Source of the DNA: Thermostichus sp. DRC_bins_24
GTDB taxonomy: Bacteria > Cyanobacteriota > Cyanobacteriia > Thermostichales > Thermostichaceae
Direction: 5' to 3'
Length of the DNA: 13,465 nucleotides
NCBI GenBank assembly: GCA_039794845.1
Contig: JAUQVK010000042.1
Span: forward strand, 1 to 13,465
Numbering within the stretch: the stretch's first letter is position 1; every line of letters starts with the position of its first letter. Made by a program: the position numbers and the translations under genes. Positions 1-10,996 of this stretch are shown one piece after another. The notes below the pieces were generated by a model. The model was not told the DNA's origin and ran no database searches. It saw nothing but the letters and a program-made list of their open reading frames with translations.

Positions 1-19
1 TCATCAGTGAAGCTATACA

Positions 20-33
20 GCCAATGCTGTCTT
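20..33 (-). promoter_or_regulatory. PAM-flanked guide target overlapping the putative -35 (TTGGCT, 24-19) of the downstream promoter
   Basis: Minus strand AAG-ACAGCATTGGC is an 11/11 match to the spacer 5' end with the canonical I-E PAM AAG. The -10 would fall just outside the window. Confidence 0.75.
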
Positions 34-57
34 CCTGTATGTAATACTGGAAGCACT

Positions 58-83
58 TAATAAGAAGAGTTGAAGCTCACTCT
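58..83 (-). terminator. Possible weak intrinsic terminator after the mini-array
   Basis: Minus strand AGAGTGA-GCT-TCA(A)CTCT forms a short hairpin with one bulge, followed by TCTTATTA. Confidence 0.25.
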
Positions 84-97
84 ATTCAGATTGAAGG

Positions 98-232
98 AAG
101 GACACCCCAAGAGTTGTGGGGAATAACCGATCGCTGGCCGGACTGATGCTGAGAGACGCACCCCCACAGACGTGGGGACAAGCATTCTTCCGGCCAATGC
201 TGTCGGTTCACCCCCATAGGATATGAGGAAAC
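98..232 (-). CRISPR. Degenerate type I-E mini-array: 2 clear repeats and 1 more decayed repeat, with short spacers of 21 and ~26 nt
   Basis: Read on the minus strand: R1 232-204 GTTTCCTCATATCCTATGGGGGTGAACCG, spacer 203-183 ACAGCATTGGCCGGAAGAATG, R2 182-154 CTTGTCCCCACGTCTGTGGGGGTGCGTCT, spacer 153-128, R3 ~127-98 GTTATTCCCCACAACTCTTGGGGTGTCCTT. R1 and R2 are 29 nt. All three keep a C-rich/GGGG stem-loop. R1 ends in the I-E-type 8-nt handle GTGAACCG. Confidence 0.85.
162..211 (-). ncRNA. Predicted ~50-nt crRNA-like regulatory guide (CreA/CreR-like)
   Basis: Inferred from Cas6e-type cleavage 8 nt before each repeat end. The product would be a GUGAACCG handle, the 21-nt spacer and the R2 hairpin. 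Its seed matches two AAG-flanked sites nearby. Confidence 0.7.
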
Positions 233-269
233 TATAGACATCATAGCATGCATTTTGGCGCACTGCCAA
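233..269 (-). promoter_or_regulatory. Sigma70-type promoter for the mini-array
   Basis: Minus strand reads TTGGCA (269-264), 18 bp, then TATGAT (245-240) preceded by the extended -10 TGC. The predicted start at ~233-234 lies immediately before repeat R1 (232). Confidence 0.65.
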
Positions 270-278
270 AGCTGTCTT
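265..278 (-). promoter_or_regulatory. PAM-flanked guide target overlapping the -35 of the mini-array promoter
   Basis: Minus strand AAG-ACAGCtTTGGC against spacer ACAGCATTGGC is 10/11. The only mismatch is at position 6, which is unpaired in Cascade R-loops. Confidence 0.75.
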
Positions 279-334
279 GATGTTTATCCAGGCTGCAAAG
301 GATGATTTGCTGAAAACCATGTGCCAAGTCTCCA

Positions 335-3067
335 TTAGTTTTCTGAATCTTTCTCAATCAGCACCCCCAACAAGGGATCCAGAGTCAGCCGCCAGTCTCC
401 CACCATTGCCACTCCCTGAGCATTGACCTCTACATAGCGGCAGTTGCGCAGTAGGGCCGATGTCCAAGTGGGGGGATTGTGTTGGGCTCTCAACGTTTCC
501 ACCAGTTCCCTCTTAGACAGGCGGGTGCTATGGGCAAGAAGTTTGCGGATCAGGGTCAGGTCAGGACGGGTGTTGAGATCCACCTGTTCTTGGGTACCGG
601 GAAAAAACAGCCCGATCTCAGTGCGTTGCAAAAAGATGGTGGCTACAGAGGGTTCACCTAGGCGGGTGGCAGCAGCGATCGCACTTTCGTCGTCTTCCTT
701 TTTCAGGTAGGTAAACTGGTCGGGCTTGGTATCAGCGTGGGGCGGCGGAATTTTTACCTCATTGGCACGGGTTTGTTTGGCGGCCTCTTCTTCGACCCGG
801 TATTTCTCCAGAGAGGTGCTCCAGTCCTCGGCATGAACCGCCTCCAGTGCTTCAGGAATCGGCATTACCAAGTCATACACCGACTCGATCAGGGTATCCA
901 TCTCCTCGGGTAGTTGCACCTGGGAGCGGTGGCGGAGAGTGAGCCAACTGCGGAGCAGAATATGGCGATCGTAAACATAGCGGCTGTCGCCAAATTCGAC
1001 GGTGCCTTCAGCGGTTAGGGTTGGTTCAATGACCCACAGAGTTGGGGTTCTAAGGGGGGCCGGTCGCCCGTCACGGGTGTGGCGGTGGAGCCGTCCAGAG
1101 CGTTGCAGGAGTAGGTCGATCGGGGCTAGGTCGCTGATCATCAGGTCAAAGTCCACATCCAAACTTTGCTCAATCACCTGGGTAGCTACCAGCACAAAGC
1201 GCTGGGGGCGATGGTCGGTCCCTTTGCCAAATTTTTCTAGGCAGTCCTTTTCAATCCGCTCCCGATCTCTGAAGAGAAAGCGCCCATGAAATAATCCCAG
1301 TTCTTCAGTTGAGAAGTGAGCTTGAAGCTTTTGACAAACGGCCTGGGCACGGTTGACGGTAGAGCAGATTACCGCCACACAGCCGCCTTCGTGGCTCAAT
1401 ACCTGGTGCAGTTCGGCGGCCCATTTATCGTCGTCATTGCTGGCCCAGCGAATCTCTAGGGCGCGGCGAACGTGGTCTGAGGCGGCAAAGGTCTGGGCTA
1501 CGGCTACCCCACTGGAGAAAGCGGTAATCCGAGGATAGGAGGCCTCTGGTAAAGACGGGACGGGCTGGCTACATCCGGTCGCGTAAGCAGTCAATAAGCG
1601 CTGACGGGTAGTGGTGGGCAGTGTTGCCGAGAGGGCAATCACAGGGGATCCCAGCACAGCAGCCCATTCCAAGAAGCGCTCCAGGAGGGTGCTGGTGTAG
1701 AGGTCGTAGGCGTGGATCTCATCGAGAATGACGGTGCGCCCCGCCAGACCAAAGAGGCGCACAAATTGATGGCGCGAGCGCACTACTCCCATCAACCCCT
1801 GGTCTAGGGTGCCCACCCCATAGGGACTGAGTAATGTCCGTTTGCGGGCCGTATGCCATTCGCTGGCAAAGACACCCCGTCCCTCCTCGTCGTAAACCTG
1901 ATCCAAACGACAGACAGTTTCTTGGTACTCCCCCTTGAGGGCAGCGGCCCCGTGGCTGAGGGTGAGATTCACCACCTTGTCGGCATAACGCTTTCGCAAA
2001 AAATCCTGCACCCGCTGAAACATGGCATTGCTCGTGGCTTGGGTGGGCAAGCCAATGTAGAAGCCTCCCGCACCGGCCTGGTGCTGTAAATGATCCGCCA
2101 GGTACAGCGCTGCCTCCGTTTTGCCCTCCCCCATGGAGGCTTCCACCATCACCAGGCAGGGCGGTGTGAGGGTAGCGGTTAGATGAATCGCTGCCTCTTG
2201 CAGGGGACGAGGTGTAGTGATGAACGAAAACAAGTCCGTAAAGTTGAGGGGATTTCCGGTTTCCGGCTGGATCCAGCCCTGGGCTTTGAGGGCAGTTTGG
2301 GCCTTCTGGGTCAGCTCCTTGGCGTAGTCTGCAAAGGGCTGATCGTTGGCATAGGGAAAGCTGGCAGGATTGGAGGCAATCCAGTCAGAGACGGTGGTGA
2401 GTCCTGCCAAAATCATGGCGGCAGCGTTGTCACACTGGTTGGGTAAATCCTCAGAAGTAAGTTGTACAAAGTCCTGAAGTTGCCGAAAAATCTCTAAACT
2501 GTGTTGCCGCCATGCACTGCGCTCATCAGTGCCTGCGATCGCGCTATCCAGGTCATCAATCTCTTGCTGAGCCGGGAAAAAGCCGTGGTGCCCGCCCACA
2601 ATCATCCCCAGTTTACAGGCCAGTCGCTTGGCCTGACGCTTAGATAAATCTCGACCAACTCCAATGGTCACCAGAAAATCTGGCAACGTGGCCGCAGTCA
2701 CCAACCCGTGGGGGGCATTTCGGGGTCTGCGGCGTTCTGGGGGCAATGAAGCCCATCCATCATACAGACCCGCTCCCACCAAGGCTTTCCCCACTTCGCT
2801 CACCTGAAACTGAAAGGCAGGACTGACTTTGCCTAAGTCGTGGCTCCCGGCCATGAAGCCGCAGAAGCGCACTAGGGATCCGTCATTGGGTAATCCCAAT
2901 CCTTGGGCGAGGCGCAGGCGAGCGACCGAACTCAGGTATGTCTTGACAATCTCCATCGCCACTGCCGCTGTATCTGCCAGGTGGCAGATCACCGGATGGT
3001 AATTAGGCTGGCCATTGTCTCTGAACTGTCCCTGCCCTGTCTTGGCCCAAAATCGTGGCTGACTCAT
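335..3067 (-). CDS. cas3: CRISPR-associated nuclease/helicase Cas3 (HD + SF2 helicase), type I-E-like
   Basis: 910-aa ORF. The N-terminal HD domain shows FWAK, HLAD, HDLGK, HG, HHG and SDW motifs. The helicase shows Walker A ASMGEGKTE, LPTQATSNAM, DEIH, SAT, HGRF, TQVIEQSLDVDFD and QRSGRLHRH. AGGAG lies 8 nt upstream of the ATG, which overlaps the WYL gene stop (ATGA, 3064-3067). Confidence 0.97.
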   Translation of the reverse strand: MSQPRFWAKTGQGQFRDNGQPNYHPVICHLADTAAVAMEIVKTYLSSVARLRLAQGLGLPNDGSLVRFCGFMAGSHDLGKVSPAFQFQVSEVGKALVGAGLYDGWASLPPERRRPRNAPHGLVTAATLPDFLVTIGVGRDLSKRQAKRLACKLGMIVGGHHGFFPAQQEIDDLDSAIAGTDERSAWRQHSLEIFRQLQDFVQLTSEDLPNQCDNAAAMILAGLTTVSDWIASNPASFPYANDQPFADYAKELTQKAQTALKAQGWIQPETGNPLNFTDLFSFITTPRPLQEAAIHLTATLTPPCLVMVEASMGEGKTEAALYLADHLQHQAGAGGFYIGLPTQATSNAMFQRVQDFLRKRYADKVVNLTLSHGAAALKGEYQETVCRLDQVYDEEGRGVFASEWHTARKRTLLSPYGVGTLDQGLMGVVRSRHQFVRLFGLAGRTVILDEIHAYDLYTSTLLERFLEWAAVLGSPVIALSATLPTTTRQRLLTAYATGCSQPVPSLPEASYPRITAFSSGVAVAQTFAASDHVRRALEIRWASNDDDKWAAELHQVLSHEGGCVAVICSTVNRAQAVCQKLQAHFSTEELGLFHGRFLFRDRERIEKDCLEKFGKGTDHRPQRFVLVATQVIEQSLDVDFDLMISDLAPIDLLLQRSGRLHRHTRDGRPAPLRTPTLWVIEPTLTAEGTVEFGDSRYVYDRHILLRSWLTLRHRSQVQLPEEMDTLIESVYDLVMPIPEALEAVHAEDWSTSLEKYRVEEEAAKQTRANEVKIPPPHADTKPDQFTYLKKEDDESAIAAATRLGEPSVATIFLQRTEIGLFFPGTQEQVDLNTRPDLTLIRKLLAHSTRLSKRELVETLRAQHNPPTWTSALLRNCRYVEVNAQGVAMVGDWRLTLDPLLGVLIEKDSEN

Positions 3068-4038
3068 GGCCGTTTCTCCTGTTGATACTGGGCCTGCATT
3101 CTTCTAATCTCCTCCTTCACCATCTCCACCAACTCCGGGGGATCCAGTACCCGCGCCCCTTTGCCGTAGTACATCACCCACCGCTTCACCTCCTGCAGCC
3201 CCCGCACCACCACATGCAACCTCAGGGATCCCTCGGGAAGTTCCTCAATCACCTGCGTGGCATGCCAGTGCCGCTCCCGAATGTAGGGGGCCGTGGCCGC
3301 ATCAAACTCAATCACCACCTCCTGCGGGATCCCGCCCACCTCATGTTGAAAGGCCGACTCCAGATGGGCCTCCCGGTCAAACTTGGGATCCACCTCAAAG
3401 CGCACGTCCAGGAGCTTGATCGCCTGGATGCGATCCACCCGAAACCAGCGAGGCTCGCCCCGGAGGTGACACCAGCCCGTCACATAGGGGTTACTGCGGG
3501 AAAAATGCAGCACATAGGGATCCAACTCCCGCTCGGAGGGGGGCTTACCGGGGGTGGCATAGCGCATCCACACCCGCCGCTGCTGCTGACAGGCCTGCTC
3601 CAACACCTGCCAGATTTCCGGGTTGAGATCCAGCTCCGCCCCCACCCGAAACAGGATGTGCTCCTGGGCCAACTGCTGCAAATCCACCCAGGCTTGCTCC
3701 GGGATCCGCTGCGCCAACTGCTGGATGGCCGATTGCAACTGCGAGCGATAGGCCGAGCCGGCATAGGCCGCCAGCATTCTGGCCCCTAGGGTGAGGGCAA
3801 ACAGTTCCCCCTCGGTCAGTGGAATCGAGGGCAAGCGCCAGGCGGGATCCGTGTAGTGAAACCCCCGTGCTTTCGAAAACTGAATGGGAGCCTGGAATCG
3901 ATCCTTCAAAAACTGAATATCGGCTCTGACCGTCCGTTCGCTCACCTCCAAAGCTTCTGCCAGCAATAGGGCAGTCGGTCGGGGATGACTGCGCAGGATC
4001 TCATCCAGTTTCAAGGCCCGTTCTAATTGACGTAGCAT
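3064..4038 (-). CDS. HTH-WYL(-WCX) transcriptional regulator (YafY/PafB-like), CRISPR-associated
   Basis: 324 aa. It has an N-terminal winged HTH (LAEALEVSERTVRADIQFL) and a WYL core (ERELDPY...YVTGWCHLRGEPRWFRVDRI). The C-terminus is WCX-like (WVMYYGKGARVLDPPEL). There is a 4-nt overlap with the cas3 start. Confidence 0.93.
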   Translation of the reverse strand: MLRQLERALKLDEILRSHPRPTALLLAEALEVSERTVRADIQFLKDRFQAPIQFSKARGFHYTDPAWRLPSIPLTEGELFALTLGARMLAAYAGSAYRSQLQSAIQQLAQRIPEQAWVDLQQLAQEHILFRVGAELDLNPEIWQVLEQACQQQRRVWMRYATPGKPPSERELDPYVLHFSRSNPYVTGWCHLRGEPRWFRVDRIQAIKLLDVRFEVDPKFDREAHLESAFQHEVGGIPQEVVIEFDAATAPYIRERHWHATQVIEELPEGSLRLHVVVRGLQEVKRWVMYYGKGARVLDPPELVEMVKEEIRRMQAQYQQEKRP

Positions 4039-7246: not shown

Positions 7247-10200
7247 TCAGCCCACCTGCCCTTCTTCCCAGAGACGGCCTTCATACCCCTGTAGCTTGAG
7301 GGCGGTCTGAAAATCCTGACAGGCTCCCTGCCAATCTCCGCCGGCAGAGCGGGCCAAAGCGCGATTGAGGTGAGCCTTGAGATGGTGGGGATCCCGTTCG
7401 ATCACCTGCGTGTAATCACGAATGGCCGACTGAAAATTCCCCTGCTGCGCCTGAGCATAGCCGCGATTGTTCAGCACCCAGAGCCTTTCCTGGGGTTCCA
7501 ACTCCAGGTGTAGCAGCTGCGTGTAATCTTCAATGGCTCTGGGAAGGTCTCCAGAGCGATCCCACAACAAAGCGCGGGAGAGCAAGGCCTGCTGCTCCTG
7601 GGGGTTCAAGATCAGAGCCTGGGTGTAGTCGGCGATGGCCAGATCGATGCTGTGGGCTTGCCGGTGCAGATCCCCCCGTTGACGGTAAGCCAGGGCCGCA
7701 TCGGCCATGCCCCAGTCGCGATTGCGGTTCAGGGCTTGGGTTAGATCCTCGAAGGCCGCCGCCCCATCCCCCAGAGCCTGTTGCACGGTCGCCCGCAGCG
7801 CAAACCCCTGCGAAGCATCCGGTTGTCGTTGGATCACCACTGTGAAATCGGTCAGCGCCCCGGGCCAATCCCCCACCTGCTGGCGAGATAGCCCCCGATA
7901 CAACAATGCCTCGGTCACCAAGGGATCCCGCTCCCCACGGTTCTCATGAATGGTCAGCTCCAGCACCCGATCCAGATCGGCCATCGCTCCGGCTGCGTTT
8001 TGGCGGAGATAGCGGGTTTGGCCCCGTTTCAGGTGCGCTTCCAAATGCTGCGGTTGCCCCTGAATCACCAGGTCAAAGTCGGTTTCTGCCTCTGCATACC
8101 GCCCCAGTTGCAACAACAGGGATCCACGGGCCAGGCGGGCCATCAGGTGCTGGGGATCCCGTTGTAGGGCGCGGCTCAGATCTTGTAGGGCCGCTTCCCC
8201 CTGGCCCAACTGTTGCAAGGCTTGCCCCCGCCGCCACAGGGCTTCGGTATGGTCGGGATCCTGCTGCAAAACCTGACTTAAATCCTCAACGCCGGAGGCC
8301 GAGTTACCCAGCTGCAAATGGGCGATGCCCCGCCCCAACCAAGCCGCCCAAGCCTGAGGTGAGCCAGGCCCTAACCCACGCGGATTCTGCTGCAAGACCC
8401 GGTCGTAATCGGCAACCGCCTCTTGCCAATGGCCCAAGCGCTGGTGCAGCTCCGCCCGCTCCAGGTAGAGATCCCACAGATCCGGTTCCAAGCACAAGGC
8501 CTGGTTCAAATCCTGCAACGCCGCTTCCAGATCCCCGGCTTGCGCCCTTGCCCGCGCCAGCTCCCGATAAAGTTGTGCTTGGGCCAGCTCCACCCCCAGC
8601 TCCAAAGCCCGGCTGTAGTCATGGGTAGCCCCCTGCACATCCCCGAGGGCGGTTCGCACCTGGCCGCGATGCAAATACGCCAGCCCCAAATTCGGATCCC
8701 GTTGCAGAGCTTGATCCAAATCCGCGAGCGCCCCCTGCCAGTCCCCCTGACGTTGCCGCGCCATCCCCCGCCGCAAATGAGCACTCACCAGCCATTCTGG
8801 CCCGCGGGGGCGGGCCAGATTCTGGCCCGTGGAGATCCCAGGCTGGGCAGCCAACTGCAGCACCCGCGAAAAATCCGCACAGGCATCGCCCCACTCTCCG
8901 TGGTCAAAATGGGCGTTGCCCCGGTTCAGGAAAAGCTGTGGATTGTCGGGATCCCGTTCTAGGGCGGCGGTGTAGTCTTGCAGGGCCGCCACCGGGTTCC
9001 CCAGAAGCAAATGCACCCGCCCACGACTGCTGTAGGCGGTGGCATCTTCGGGATCCAGAGCAATCGCTTGGCCAAAATCCGCAAGGGCCGCCTCGATATT
9101 GCCCAAATCCAGGTGGGCGATCCCCCGATTCAAAAAGGCTTTTGCCTCCTGCGGATCCCATTGAAGGGTACGGTTGAAGTCTTCTAGGGCAGCAGCTGGA
9201 TCCCCGAGCCCTTGACGAGCCAAGCCCCGGTACAGATAGGCCCGCGATAACTCCGGGTTTAAGTCGATGGCCCGTCCACAATCGGCAAGTACCGAGTCGA
9301 GGGCGTTGTTGCCCATGTGGGCGATGGCGCGATTCAGGTAGAGCTGCGCTTGACCGGCAGGATCCTGGTCACTCAGCTCGATTGCCCGAGAAAAGTCTTC
9401 TACCGCCCCCGACCAATCTCCCAGGCCCTGACGGGCCAAGCCGCGGTGGTAATAGGCCTTGCTCTGCTGGGGATCCAACCGCAGCACTTGGGTATAGTCC
9501 TCAACACCCCCCGCCAGATCCAGCAAATTCACCCGCGCCACCCCGCGGTTGAAATAGGCCTCCACATCCTGGGGATCCCGTTTGAGCACCTCCGAAAAGT
9601 CTTCCGCTGCCCCCCGCGAATCACCTAGGTTGCCCCGCACCACCCCCCGGTTGAAATAGGCGCGCGTATCCTCCGGATTCAGTTCAATCGCCCGCGAATA
9701 ATCGTCAATCGCCTGCTGCTGCTGATTCAGTTGTCGGTGGGCATTGCCACGGTTGTAATAGGCCACGGCCCATTGCGGGTTAAGGCTGAGGGCTTGGCTG
9801 TAATCGGCAACGGATCCCTCGTAGTCCTCCAGACGGTAGCGGGCGATGCCCCGGTTGAAATAGGCGCGCGCATCCCCGGCCAACTGGATCACTTGTGTGT
9901 AATCTTCGATGGCCCCCGCCAGATCTCCAATTTTGTAGCGGGCGATCCCCCGTTGGCTGTAAGCACGGCTGTCTTTGGGATCCAGCTGAATCGCCAGGGT
10001 ATAGTCGGCAATCGCCCCCATCGGATCCCCTTGGCGGGCTTTATCCTGACCACGGGCCAAAAGGCGCGTCACCAAAACCTGATCCACCCCGACATCGGGA
10101 AGGATGGATTCGTTGTGGGTGGGCAACAGAGGGCGCAACGCCTCCAGCACCTCAGCAGCCGACTGAAAGCGATCCTGCCAGCGGGGGCGAATCATGCGAT

Positions 10201-10996
10201 CGAGAATATCCGCCAGCTCATCGCTCACCTGCACCCGATCCCGCCAGAGCAATTGGCCGGTGCGAGGGTCATCGCGGATTTTGTTGGGGGTGCGCCCCGT
10301 CAGCGCTTGAATGGCCAGCACCCCAAGGGAGTAAAGATCACTGCAGGGTTGCGGTTTACCGTTCAACTGTTCTGCCGGCATGTACCCAACCGAGCCGATC
10401 ACCGTTGCCAACTGGGTTTGGCCGGGGGCATGGCTCACCAACATCCCCACTTCCTTCACCGCCCCAAAGTCGATCAACACCAACTTGCCGTCGGCATCGC
10501 GGCGCATCAGGTTGGCGGGCTTGATATCGCGGTGCACAATGTGGTGGGCATGGACATGGCGCAAAATGTCCAAAACATCTCGCAGCAGTTCCAGCACTTC
10601 CGCCTCGCTAAACGGCTTGCCTGAAACCATCTCATGGCTGAGATCATGCCCGGCAACAAACTCCTGCACCAGATAAAAGTCATGATTCTGCTCGAAGTGG
10701 GCCAACAGGCGCGGCACCCGATCATAGTGGTTGAGCTGGTTGAGAACCTTGGCTTCCCGTTCAAACAGTTTGCGAGCCGTGGCCAAGGTATAGGGATCTG
10801 TTGAAAGGGGACGCAGACGCTTGACAACACAGGGGGTATTGAACGTGTCTTGATCCACCGCCTTATAGGTCACGCCAAATCCACCCTCTCCCAAGGGATT
10901 GAGAATGCGGTAGCGCCCCCTCAGAACCGTTCCCGCTCTGACCCGGTCATCCATAGCTGAAGCCAATGCTGCTGCAAGCTGGCTCGATTTTGCCAC
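7247..10996 (-). CDS. Hanks-type (Pkn2-like) Ser/Thr protein kinase with a long C-terminal TPR array
   Basis: Kinase motifs LGEGGFGVTY, VVK, HRDIKPAN, DFG, GYMPAE and DLYSLG. These are followed by ~930 aa of 34-aa TPR units (AY.NRG.....LG....A..DY..AL.L.P). The start may be the ATG at 10954 rather than the GTG at 10996. Confidence 0.93.
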   Translation of the reverse strand: MAKSSQLAAALASAMDDRVRAGTVLRGRYRILNPLGEGGFGVTYKAVDQDTFNTPCVVKRLRPLSTDPYTLATARKLFEREAKVLNQLNHYDRVPRLLAHFEQNHDFYLVQEFVAGHDLSHEMVSGKPFSEAEVLELLRDVLDILRHVHAHHIVHRDIKPANLMRRDADGKLVLIDFGAVKEVGMLVSHAPGQTQLATVIGSVGYMPAEQLNGKPQPCSDLYSLGVLAIQALTGRTPNKIRDDPRTGQLLWRDRVQVSDELADILDRMIRPRWQDRFQSAAEVLEALRPLLPTHNESILPDVGVDQVLVTRLLARGQDKARQGDPMGAIADYTLAIQLDPKDSRAYSQRGIARYKIGDLAGAIEDYTQVIQLAGDARAYFNRGIARYRLEDYEGSVADYSQALSLNPQWAVAYYNRGNAHRQLNQQQQAIDDYSRAIELNPEDTRAYFNRGVVRGNLGDSRGAAEDFSEVLKRDPQDVEAYFNRGVARVNLLDLAGGVEDYTQVLRLDPQQSKAYYHRGLARQGLGDWSGAVEDFSRAIELSDQDPAGQAQLYLNRAIAHMGNNALDSVLADCGRAIDLNPELSRAYLYRGLARQGLGDPAAALEDFNRTLQWDPQEAKAFLNRGIAHLDLGNIEAALADFGQAIALDPEDATAYSSRGRVHLLLGNPVAALQDYTAALERDPDNPQLFLNRGNAHFDHGEWGDACADFSRVLQLAAQPGISTGQNLARPRGPEWLVSAHLRRGMARQRQGDWQGALADLDQALQRDPNLGLAYLHRGQVRTALGDVQGATHDYSRALELGVELAQAQLYRELARARAQAGDLEAALQDLNQALCLEPDLWDLYLERAELHQRLGHWQEAVADYDRVLQQNPRGLGPGSPQAWAAWLGRGIAHLQLGNSASGVEDLSQVLQQDPDHTEALWRRGQALQQLGQGEAALQDLSRALQRDPQHLMARLARGSLLLQLGRYAEAETDFDLVIQGQPQHLEAHLKRGQTRYLRQNAAGAMADLDRVLELTIHENRGERDPLVTEALLYRGLSRQQVGDWPGALTDFTVVIQRQPDASQGFALRATVQQALGDGAAAFEDLTQALNRNRDWGMADAALAYRQRGDLHRQAHSIDLAIADYTQALILNPQEQQALLSRALLWDRSGDLPRAIEDYTQLLHLELEPQERLWVLNNRGYAQAQQGNFQSAIRDYTQVIERDPHHLKAHLNRALARSAGGDWQGACQDFQTALKLQGYEGRLWEEGQVG

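Follow-up and report, generated by a model that had tools for sequence, protein, structure and literature searches.

A candidate CRISPR-derived regulatory cassette with a self-guide, two targets and a small cargo gene at the start of cyanobacterial type I-E Cascade operons

The region behind cas3

The window, by which we mean the whole 13,465-nt stretch of Thermostichus sp. DRC_bins_24 analysed here, is the entire contig C42 of a 3.5-Mb assembly in 115 contigs, the shortest of which has 2.5 kb. The relatives of its DNA are cyanobacteria, and near-identical DNA is present in a hot-spring metagenome run (X1). On the minus strand, an HTH-WYL-WCX regulator is followed by a type I-E-like cas3, and in close relatives of this cas3 the gene that comes next is cse1. 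The contig ends at window base 1, beside a mini-array of degenerate CRISPR repeats, and the finding reported here is confined to these last 334 bases. The features are:

3064..4038, minus strand: HTH-WYL-WCX regulator overlapping the start of cas3 (domain assignment)
335..3067, minus strand: cas3, type I-E-like (HD plus helicase), 910 aa (profiles cas3_core and cas3_HD over cut-off)
57..320, minus strand: leader reading frame of 87 codons, with ribosome binding site and ATG just behind cas3, open through T1, both repeats and the anti-guide (ORF analysis)
263..278, minus strand: target 1 (T1), AAG PAM (278-276) plus protospacer, matching spacer positions 1-5, 7-11 and 13 (sequence match; in 8/8 type I-E cassettes)
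240..269, minus strand: predicted promoter P1 of the mini-array, -35 TTGGCA (269-264, inside T1), 18 nt, extended -10 TGcTATGAT (promoter search)
204..232, minus strand: degenerate repeat R1, 8-nt 5′ handle and hairpin kept (comparison with the genome's own type I-E repeat)
183..203, minus strand: spacer (guide), 21 nt (sequence inspection)
154..182, minus strand: degenerate repeat R2, hairpin (3′ handle) kept (comparison with the genome's own type I-E repeat)
162..211, minus strand: predicted mature guide, 50 nt (8 + 21 + 21; inferred from repeat anatomy)
125..148, minus strand: anti-guide, a stretch complementary both to the spacer, with a core at 144-132 opposite spacer positions 17-5, and to the R1 end (pairing analysis)
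99..127, minus strand: faint third repeat-like hairpin, which alternatively pairs with the 3′ half of R1 (sequence and folding)
18..33, minus strand: target 2 (T2), AAG PAM (33-31) plus protospacer, matching spacer positions 1-11 and 13 (sequence match; in 5/8 cassettes)
1..9, minus strand: contig end departing from the near-identical X1 strain, an insertion junction or end artefact (comparison with X1)

Elsewhere in the window, a Ser/Thr kinase of 1249 aa that carries an extended array of TPRs is encoded at 7247-10996; proteins of this kind are ordinary in cyanobacteria.

The repeats, the spacer and the AAG-flanked targets that a first-pass annotation had placed on the minus strand were all confirmed at their coordinates. 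The canonical repeat, which it had proposed to look for, was found in the genome's own type I-E array; this array begins at the first bases of contig C13, where 11 repeats were found. Relative to the canonical repeat, R1 is identical at 21/29 positions, with the 5′ handle complete (8/8) and the hairpin re-paired, and R2 at 23/29 positions (19/21 over the first 21 nt and 4/8 in the handle), with the canonical hairpin intact. The same trend, a 5′ handle kept in R1 and a hairpin kept in R2, is seen across 7 loci; in genome G039 the R1 handle is 2 bases off its cognate repeat. The spacer is short, with 21 nt versus 31-35 nt for canonical spacers (n=173). With the cut site placed as is established for Cas6e, the repeat anatomy supports the CreR/CreA-like guide of ~50 nt (211-162) predicted at first pass. 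The third repeat-like hairpin was missed by a fuzzy repeat search allowing up to 8 mismatches.

P1 is the only sigma70-like promoter in positions 1-420 (1 match; mean of 0.4 in shuffles). We infer that transcription from it would start at ~232, the first base of R1, and a TGnTAnnnT extended -10 lies upstream of R1 in 7/7 loci, and also in L139. The predicted start is ~46 nt from the T1 PAM, which places it within the 37-46 bp given for CRISIS targets in the consulted part of that report (10.1101/2024.12.27.630466).

We screened 41 loci with cse1 (36 distinct junctions; 4 loci without cas3 in view) and found the cassette in 6 of them. A similarity search added a seventh, which lies before a complete casA-cas2 operon on the Acaryochloris marina MBIC10699 plasmid pREC1; a regulator similar to the HTH-WYL-WCX type precedes cas3 on this plasmid too. 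With the window, the total is 8 cyanobacterial type I-E loci. All 7 orthologous cassettes are followed by cse1, with the full Cascade operon in NZ_AP026076.1 and G039. Three loci (L033, L047 and L064) have T1 alone, with no T2 and no cargo; L064 also has other genes between cas3 and the cassette, and in L033 (5150-5220) a duplicated partial repeat in the R1 region brings the distance between T1 and spacer to 120 nt, with the frame kept. Among genomes of the same genus that carry cse1, 0/5 have the cassette, which is thus dispensable.

An Rfam search returned one chance match, far below the gathering score, and an exact search of metagenome contigs for the repeat-spacer junction gave 0 matches. 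With a degenerate junction, 4 matches were obtained in viral contigs, all in coding sequence without a cas gene or a second repeat, and 12 in 400 genomes, namely 4 cassettes already known and 8 non-cassettes (7 apparently coding, 1 canonical array). In E. coli K-12 (L138 8140-8553), the cas3-casA gap has no open leader frame and a single degenerate repeat, which is in antisense orientation close to the end of cas3 and 19/29 identical to the array repeat. In L064 and L100, the gap behind cas3 contains a small pair of toxin and antitoxin genes, encoded on the opposite strand, which we take to be BrnT/BrnA-like, and remnants of such a pair occur in L042, L050, L058 and L063, in both I-E and I-B loci.

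Two putative targets of one predicted guide

Spacer and targets differ at positions 6, 12 and 14-16 in T1 (278-265), and at positions 12, 14, 16 and 17 in T2 (33-20). According to the first-pass annotation, the first 11 spacer nucleotides recur twice directly after AAG; this is exact for the downstream site (11/11), and one base short for the upstream site (10/11). Its judgment that the recurrence is very unlikely to be due to chance is borne out. Across both strands of the 3.5-Mb assembly, AAG followed by spacer positions 1-5 and 7-11 occurs at 2 places, T1 and T2, and in 20,000 sets of dinucleotide-shuffled flanks one match was seen in 1 and two matches in 0. AAG is given as the type I-E PAM in the consulted parts of two reports (10.1101/2023.03.10.532045; 10.1101/2023.03.03.530964). 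A search for true protospacers from which to read the PAM of this clade found none for 173 spacers in their own genome, and one array compared with phages and plasmids gave no usable match.

The mismatch pattern extends to the relatives. We picked targets as AAG followed by a match to spacer positions 1-5 and 7-11 in which up to 3 mismatches were allowed, making no use of positions 6, 12 and 13, and obtained 13 targets in the 8 loci, which are kin and not independent. Matches number 12-13/13 at each of positions 1-5, 5/13 at position 6, 11-13/13 at positions 7-11, 2/13 at position 12 and 13/13 at position 13; the periodicity of 6 and 12 noted in the window is thus supported in the relatives. 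The spacers differ from locus to locus, and the targets follow their own spacers: in 7 loci, 118/121 core positions match the spacer of the same locus versus 551/726 for the spacers of other loci, and the spacer-target co-variation that had been suggested as a check is therefore found. Below base 640, the differences between X1 and the window, among those listed (16 of the 18 on the contig), are three, at T1 positions 6, 15 and 16.

It had been proposed that the guide targets two flanking promoters. This agrees with T1, which overlaps the predicted P1. At T2, no sigma70 -10 at the T1 spacing is conserved in the orthologues, and T2 may thus serve as a roadblock or work through a different kind of promoter. 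A short conserved dyad (ACTC...RAGT) lies 25-45 nt ahead of T2, at window positions 75-55 (minus strand) and also in L053 and L034; it is a possible operator or small hairpin.

Cargo gene, contig end, anti-guide and leader frame

In the relatives, an HTH gene, which we call the cargo, is found 88-104 nt downstream from T2. Four loci (L034, L053, L065 and L139) have this small HTH ORF and then cse1, and the P0002 protein is 74% identical to the small ORF of L053; the longest contig carrying P0002 has the length of the X1 contig (14,281). The X1 contig extends 629 bases past window base 10, and its loose end resembles L053 behind T2; thus the window cassette very probably runs into a small HTH ORF, then cse1. 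The first-pass annotation, which did not include the cargo family, the anti-guide or the open frame, had left the choice for the downstream gene between cse1 and a toxin; in the relatives a small HTH gene and cse1 are both there, in that order. The state of T2 goes with that of the cargo across the 8 related loci. Loci with an intact cargo (L053, L034 and window/X1, where the window's cargo is inferred through X1 and P0002) have a T2 seed free of mismatches, those with a damaged cargo (a stop and a frameshift in L139, a missing homologous ATG in L065) have seed mismatches, and the three loci with no cargo have no T2.

The cargo encodes 78-86 aa without a named family and is weakly HTH_17-like. 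Searched against Pfam to E 1, the L034 cargo matches weak HTH families only and has no KilAC domain; one member of the family carries PF12728. The structural model is a winged HTH (pLDDT 76) with weak likeness to BldC (best Z 4.1, rmsd 2.2, 42 aligned) and Xis (3.8), and a Foldseek search with it returned nothing at E<0.001. The protein starts with QL(S/N/D)L(F/L), the QL being invariant in 17 aligned members. This resembles the beta-clamp motif, whose consensus is given as QL[SD]LF in the consulted part of PMC12867686. The consensus is exact in 6/21 short members and approached in 13/21, and a near-consensus motif within the first 12 residues occurs in 0/6697 background ORFs; the cargo of type I-E loci reads mostly QLNLL, two positions off QL[SD]LF. 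Our leading guess is that the cargo binds DNA and occupies the beta sliding clamp through this N-terminal motif, and clamp binding is put forward tentatively.

Homologues of the cargo occur in 11/400 class-wide genomes and in 4/173 genomes of one family, and none was found in viral contigs, phage records or this assembly. In six genomes, the 2-3 kb in view around a homologue contain no cas gene. Outside cas loci, L093-L098 hold homologues with exact or near QLSLF starts, adjoining toxin-antitoxin-like genes or facing a larger HTH gene.

The cargo is also found behind other types of guide. In L100 and L107, which are of type I-B (Myxan), a homologue is flanked by cas3 and cmx8 and preceded by a mini-array made of the I-B repeat. 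The targets of these mini-arrays have an ATG PAM and are mismatched at positions 6 and 12; the PAM of this I-B subtype has been reported to be A-Y-G. The arrays of both loci are also crossed by an open frame. In L108, a distant homologue (E 4.7e-5) sits between cas3 and a cas5d-like gene (named by reading of the sequence), with a repeat that has a TTC-flanked, bulged match (2/5000 shuffles); this cassette is probably of type I-C. In L099/L103, the array, the target and the cargo N-terminus have been lost together.

These observations bear on whether the cargo is a toxin at all. The cassette could be a plain CreR, in which both sites only tune Cascade expression and the HTH gene either regulates the operon or is carried along without harm, and we regard this as a serious possibility, if a little below even odds. 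The three cassettes with T1 and no cargo are as expected for it, as are the guessed Xis/BldC/MerR-like fold (Z ~4), the homologues outside cas loci, and the dyad ahead of T2, which could be the cargo's own operator. Against it, T2 decays exactly where the cargo is broken, I-B and I-C-like loci carry the same family behind guides that are unrelated, and in L103 loss of the guide accompanies loss of the cargo start.

In the strain itself, the cargo gene and the Cascade operon would lie past window base 1. Absence of Cascade and cas6e from the genome had been named at first pass as evidence against the circuit; cse1, cse2, cas7, cas5, cas6e and the type I-E cas1 and cas2 are indeed found in none of the 115 contigs, yet the contig ends at this very site. 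Both cas3 (C42) and the type I-E array (C13) face contig ends, and an assembly gap between C42 and C13 is thus likely. Whether the circuit still runs in this strain depends on the Cascade genes absent from the assembly. The cassette might instead be a relic here while real in relatives, Cascade and cargo having been deleted or interrupted at window base 9; the missing Cascade genes fit this, as does the fact that bases 1-9 depart from X1, whose loose end differs from them. A search for an insertion sequence end at bases 1-9 found neither a matching contig end nor an IS family. There is precedent for such decay: in L038 (~3215-3500), from a related population, cse1 stops after ~95 codons and is joined straight to a CRISPR array, a natural deletion of the Cascade operon; within the genus, cas3 of G004 (L030) is frameshifted and in pieces, and G005 (L025) has a stop near the cse1 start. 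We nevertheless consider a relic unlikely, given the fragmentation into 115 contigs, the position of cas3 and array at ends facing the gap, and the intact cas3, seeds and promoter.

The region 810-1410 of contig C13 (L023) contains an MNT-HEPN-like pair, so named by reading of the sequence: a nucleotidyltransferase-like gene and a partner that is interrupted by an in-frame stop. The pair is flanked by the last canonical repeat on one side and a degenerate repeat (1378-1406) on the other, and a nitrogen-fixation cluster comes next. No AAG-plus-seed target was found in the assembly for the degenerate repeat or for either trailing sequence.

Behind R2, the anti-guide can pair with the spacer. The duplex was reached by few dinucleotide shuffles out of 1000 in the window (1), L034 (0), L053 (1) and L065 (0). 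In L139 the count was 32, and the single-target loci gave 44, 69 and 430. Its best register lies 14-20 nt behind the R2 cut in 8/8 loci. Pairs were counted by a scripted register search, a MAFFT alignment being out of register. Among the window, L034, L053 and L065, spacer positions 7-15 pair in 4/4, two alternative Watson-Crick pairs are seen at each of six positions, and G-U pairs are present. The window fold (232-95) has a z of -3.75. In predicted folding, adding the anti-guide does not lower seed accessibility in the window (0.28 to 0.38) and removes the R1 hairpin (0.97 to 0.01); in L034, L053, L065 and L064 the seed becomes paired. The pairing is seen in the sequences, and a role in gating the guide is in our view an even bet. 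Alternatively, the anti-guide could be the neutral by-product of an inverted duplication, kept alike by template switching and without function as RNA. Its weakness in single-target loci, the failure to find it in the I-B or I-C-like cassettes and a folding effect that varies between loci would suit such an origin, but the shared offset behind the R2 cut, the compensatory pairs at six positions and the G-U wobbles make it rather improbable.

The leader frame is open in 6/8 type I-E loci, with 87-110 codons, the exceptions being L064 and L139. Its peptide is poorly conserved, and the probability of an open frame by chance is 0.01-0.18 per locus. The ribosome binding site and ATG are apparently the old start of cse1. 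We can only guess at a role: ribosome traffic might shield the read-through mRNA from Cas6, or be coupled to cse1 (L033, L047). Spacer positions 6 and 12 are third-codon positions of this frame, as are 3 and 9. A rival view takes the two sites for operators of a protein, either the WYL regulator or the cargo itself, or for fragments of a promoter that were duplicated, with the spacer just a third copy. It would draw on these third-codon positions, on the partly palindromic T2 (ACAGC...GCTGT) and on the need for TTGGC as a -35 in any case. This view is very improbable: apart from positions 6, 12 and those past 13, the AAG-flanked copies hardly deviate from the spacer, positions 3 and 9 match in 12/13 and 11/13 targets, T2 has the same pattern outside the frame, and the I-B and I-C-like versions use PAMs of their own.

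A proposed Cascade-supervised cassette and its known counterparts

We suggest, with a probability of roughly 0.8, that the whole is explained as a CRISPR-derived regulatory cassette at the start of the Cascade operon, made of a self-guide, two targets and a cargo. Transcription would start at R1 from P1, a predicted but conserved promoter. Cas6e would cut behind both hairpins, leaving the 50-nt guide with its short spacer, and Cascade loaded with it would bind the two AAG-flanked sites through ~11-13 paired bases, too few for Cas3, as in CreR and CreA. Cascade at T1 would cover the -35 of P1, a geometry that is evident in the window, and may thereby place the guide and the read-through genes under negative feedback reporting free Cascade. 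At T2 it would hold down the winged-HTH cargo together with the cse1 that follows, either by occluding a promoter or by acting as a roadblock, the link to the cargo coming from the correlation described above. If Cascade were lost or blocked, the cargo would be released, probably at a cost to the cell, as in CrePA and CRISIS; that it is toxic on release, on which the correlations above bear only indirectly, is given a little less than an even chance. The anti-guide would fold back on the spacer in the precursor and damp or gate loading, so that guide is made mainly when Cas6e and Cas7 capture the nascent RNA. Processing, binding without cutting, repression and release on anti-CRISPR attack are all modelled on CreR, CrePA and CRISIS.

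A broader version of the proposal is a portable, Cascade-supervised safeguard, in which 80-aa winged-HTH clamp poisons were recruited independently behind I-E, I-B and I-C guides, the I-E guide being self-repressing, gated by its anti-guide and shielded by ribosomes, so that the cassette acts as a switch-like sensor releasing a toxin on anti-CRISPR attack. We consider this version quite unlikely as a whole. If the cassette works as proposed, CRISPR-supervised toxins would reach into type I-E and into cyanobacteria through a cargo family that is new, and a regulatory guide would prove able to carry its own brake in the form of an anti-guide, a target on its own promoter and translation through the array. 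This bears on the question of what keeps a regulatory guide weak enough for immune crRNAs to out-compete it, and a CRISPRi guide gated by an anti-guide could be a design principle. The proposal is testable in the cultured Acaryochloris marina MBIC10699, with pREC1 and its complete operon, and in three loci with intact cargo.

The known systems are compared here as described in the consulted parts of the cited sources. CreR of Salmonella enterica type I-E is a degenerate two-repeat mini-CRISPR before casA, whose autorepression senses crRNA load and anti-CRISPRs (10.1101/2023.03.10.532045). It shares with the window the 5′ handle in R1, the 3′ handle in R2, the AAG PAM and a partial match, but has one target ~140 bp before casA and no cargo there, whereas the cassette described here has two tandem targets, one of them on the guide's own promoter, together with a protein cargo, anti-guide and open frame. 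Mini-arrays between cas3 and cas8 were reported in ~19% of bacterial type I-E loci, with a mismatch at position 6 and AAG (Shmakov et al.; 10.1101/2023.03.03.530964). They occupy the same position as that of the window, which differs in being co-oriented and in having two targets. CreTA of Haloarcula hispanica type I-B uses one guide to repress both a toxin and cas8 (10.1101/2023.03.10.532045); its single site lies between divergent promoters and its toxin is an RNA, in contrast to the two separate tandem sites of the window.

For T2, the counterparts are systems with cargo genes. In CrePA of Acinetobacter baylyi type I-F, the order is cas3, creA, target, a small protein gene and the first Cascade gene, and the cargo is freed when the effector is blocked (10.1101/2024.01.05.574328). 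The layout is alike, but CreP is a KilAC-domain division inhibitor, while the cargo described here is an unrelated winged HTH in cyanobacterial I-E, I-B and probably I-C loci. In CRISIS, of type I-C, a crlRNA of ~50 nt supervises defence genes that form a cargo within the cas operon; mismatches fall at positions 6 and 12, and target and start site of the cargo genes are 37-46 bp apart (10.1101/2024.12.27.630466). It resembles the window in the short guide, the 6/12 mismatches and the distance from target to start. It differs in that the repeat unit follows the cargo and there is one target, and no lone 80-aa HTH is among the eight cargos described in the consulted part of the report. For the possible action of the cargo only, we liken it to phage Mu C, a small DNA-binding protein with an N-terminal clamp-binding motif, of which an excess is lethal by soaking up clamps (PMC12867686).

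By these analogies, the cassette would work like CreR at T1 and like CrePA or CRISIS at T2, and its cargo is not a CreP. The consulted parts of the literature (including 10.1101/2024.10.29.618823, PMC10097628, 10.64898/2026.06.02.729485 and PMC11096372) describe neither the two-site layout nor the cargo family, and mention no anti-guide or open frame; the supplements of preprints may list these loci. Regulatory guides of the CreR and CreA kind were thus already known, and what the cyanobacterial cassettes add to them is a second target, a cargo family, an anti-guide and an open reading frame.
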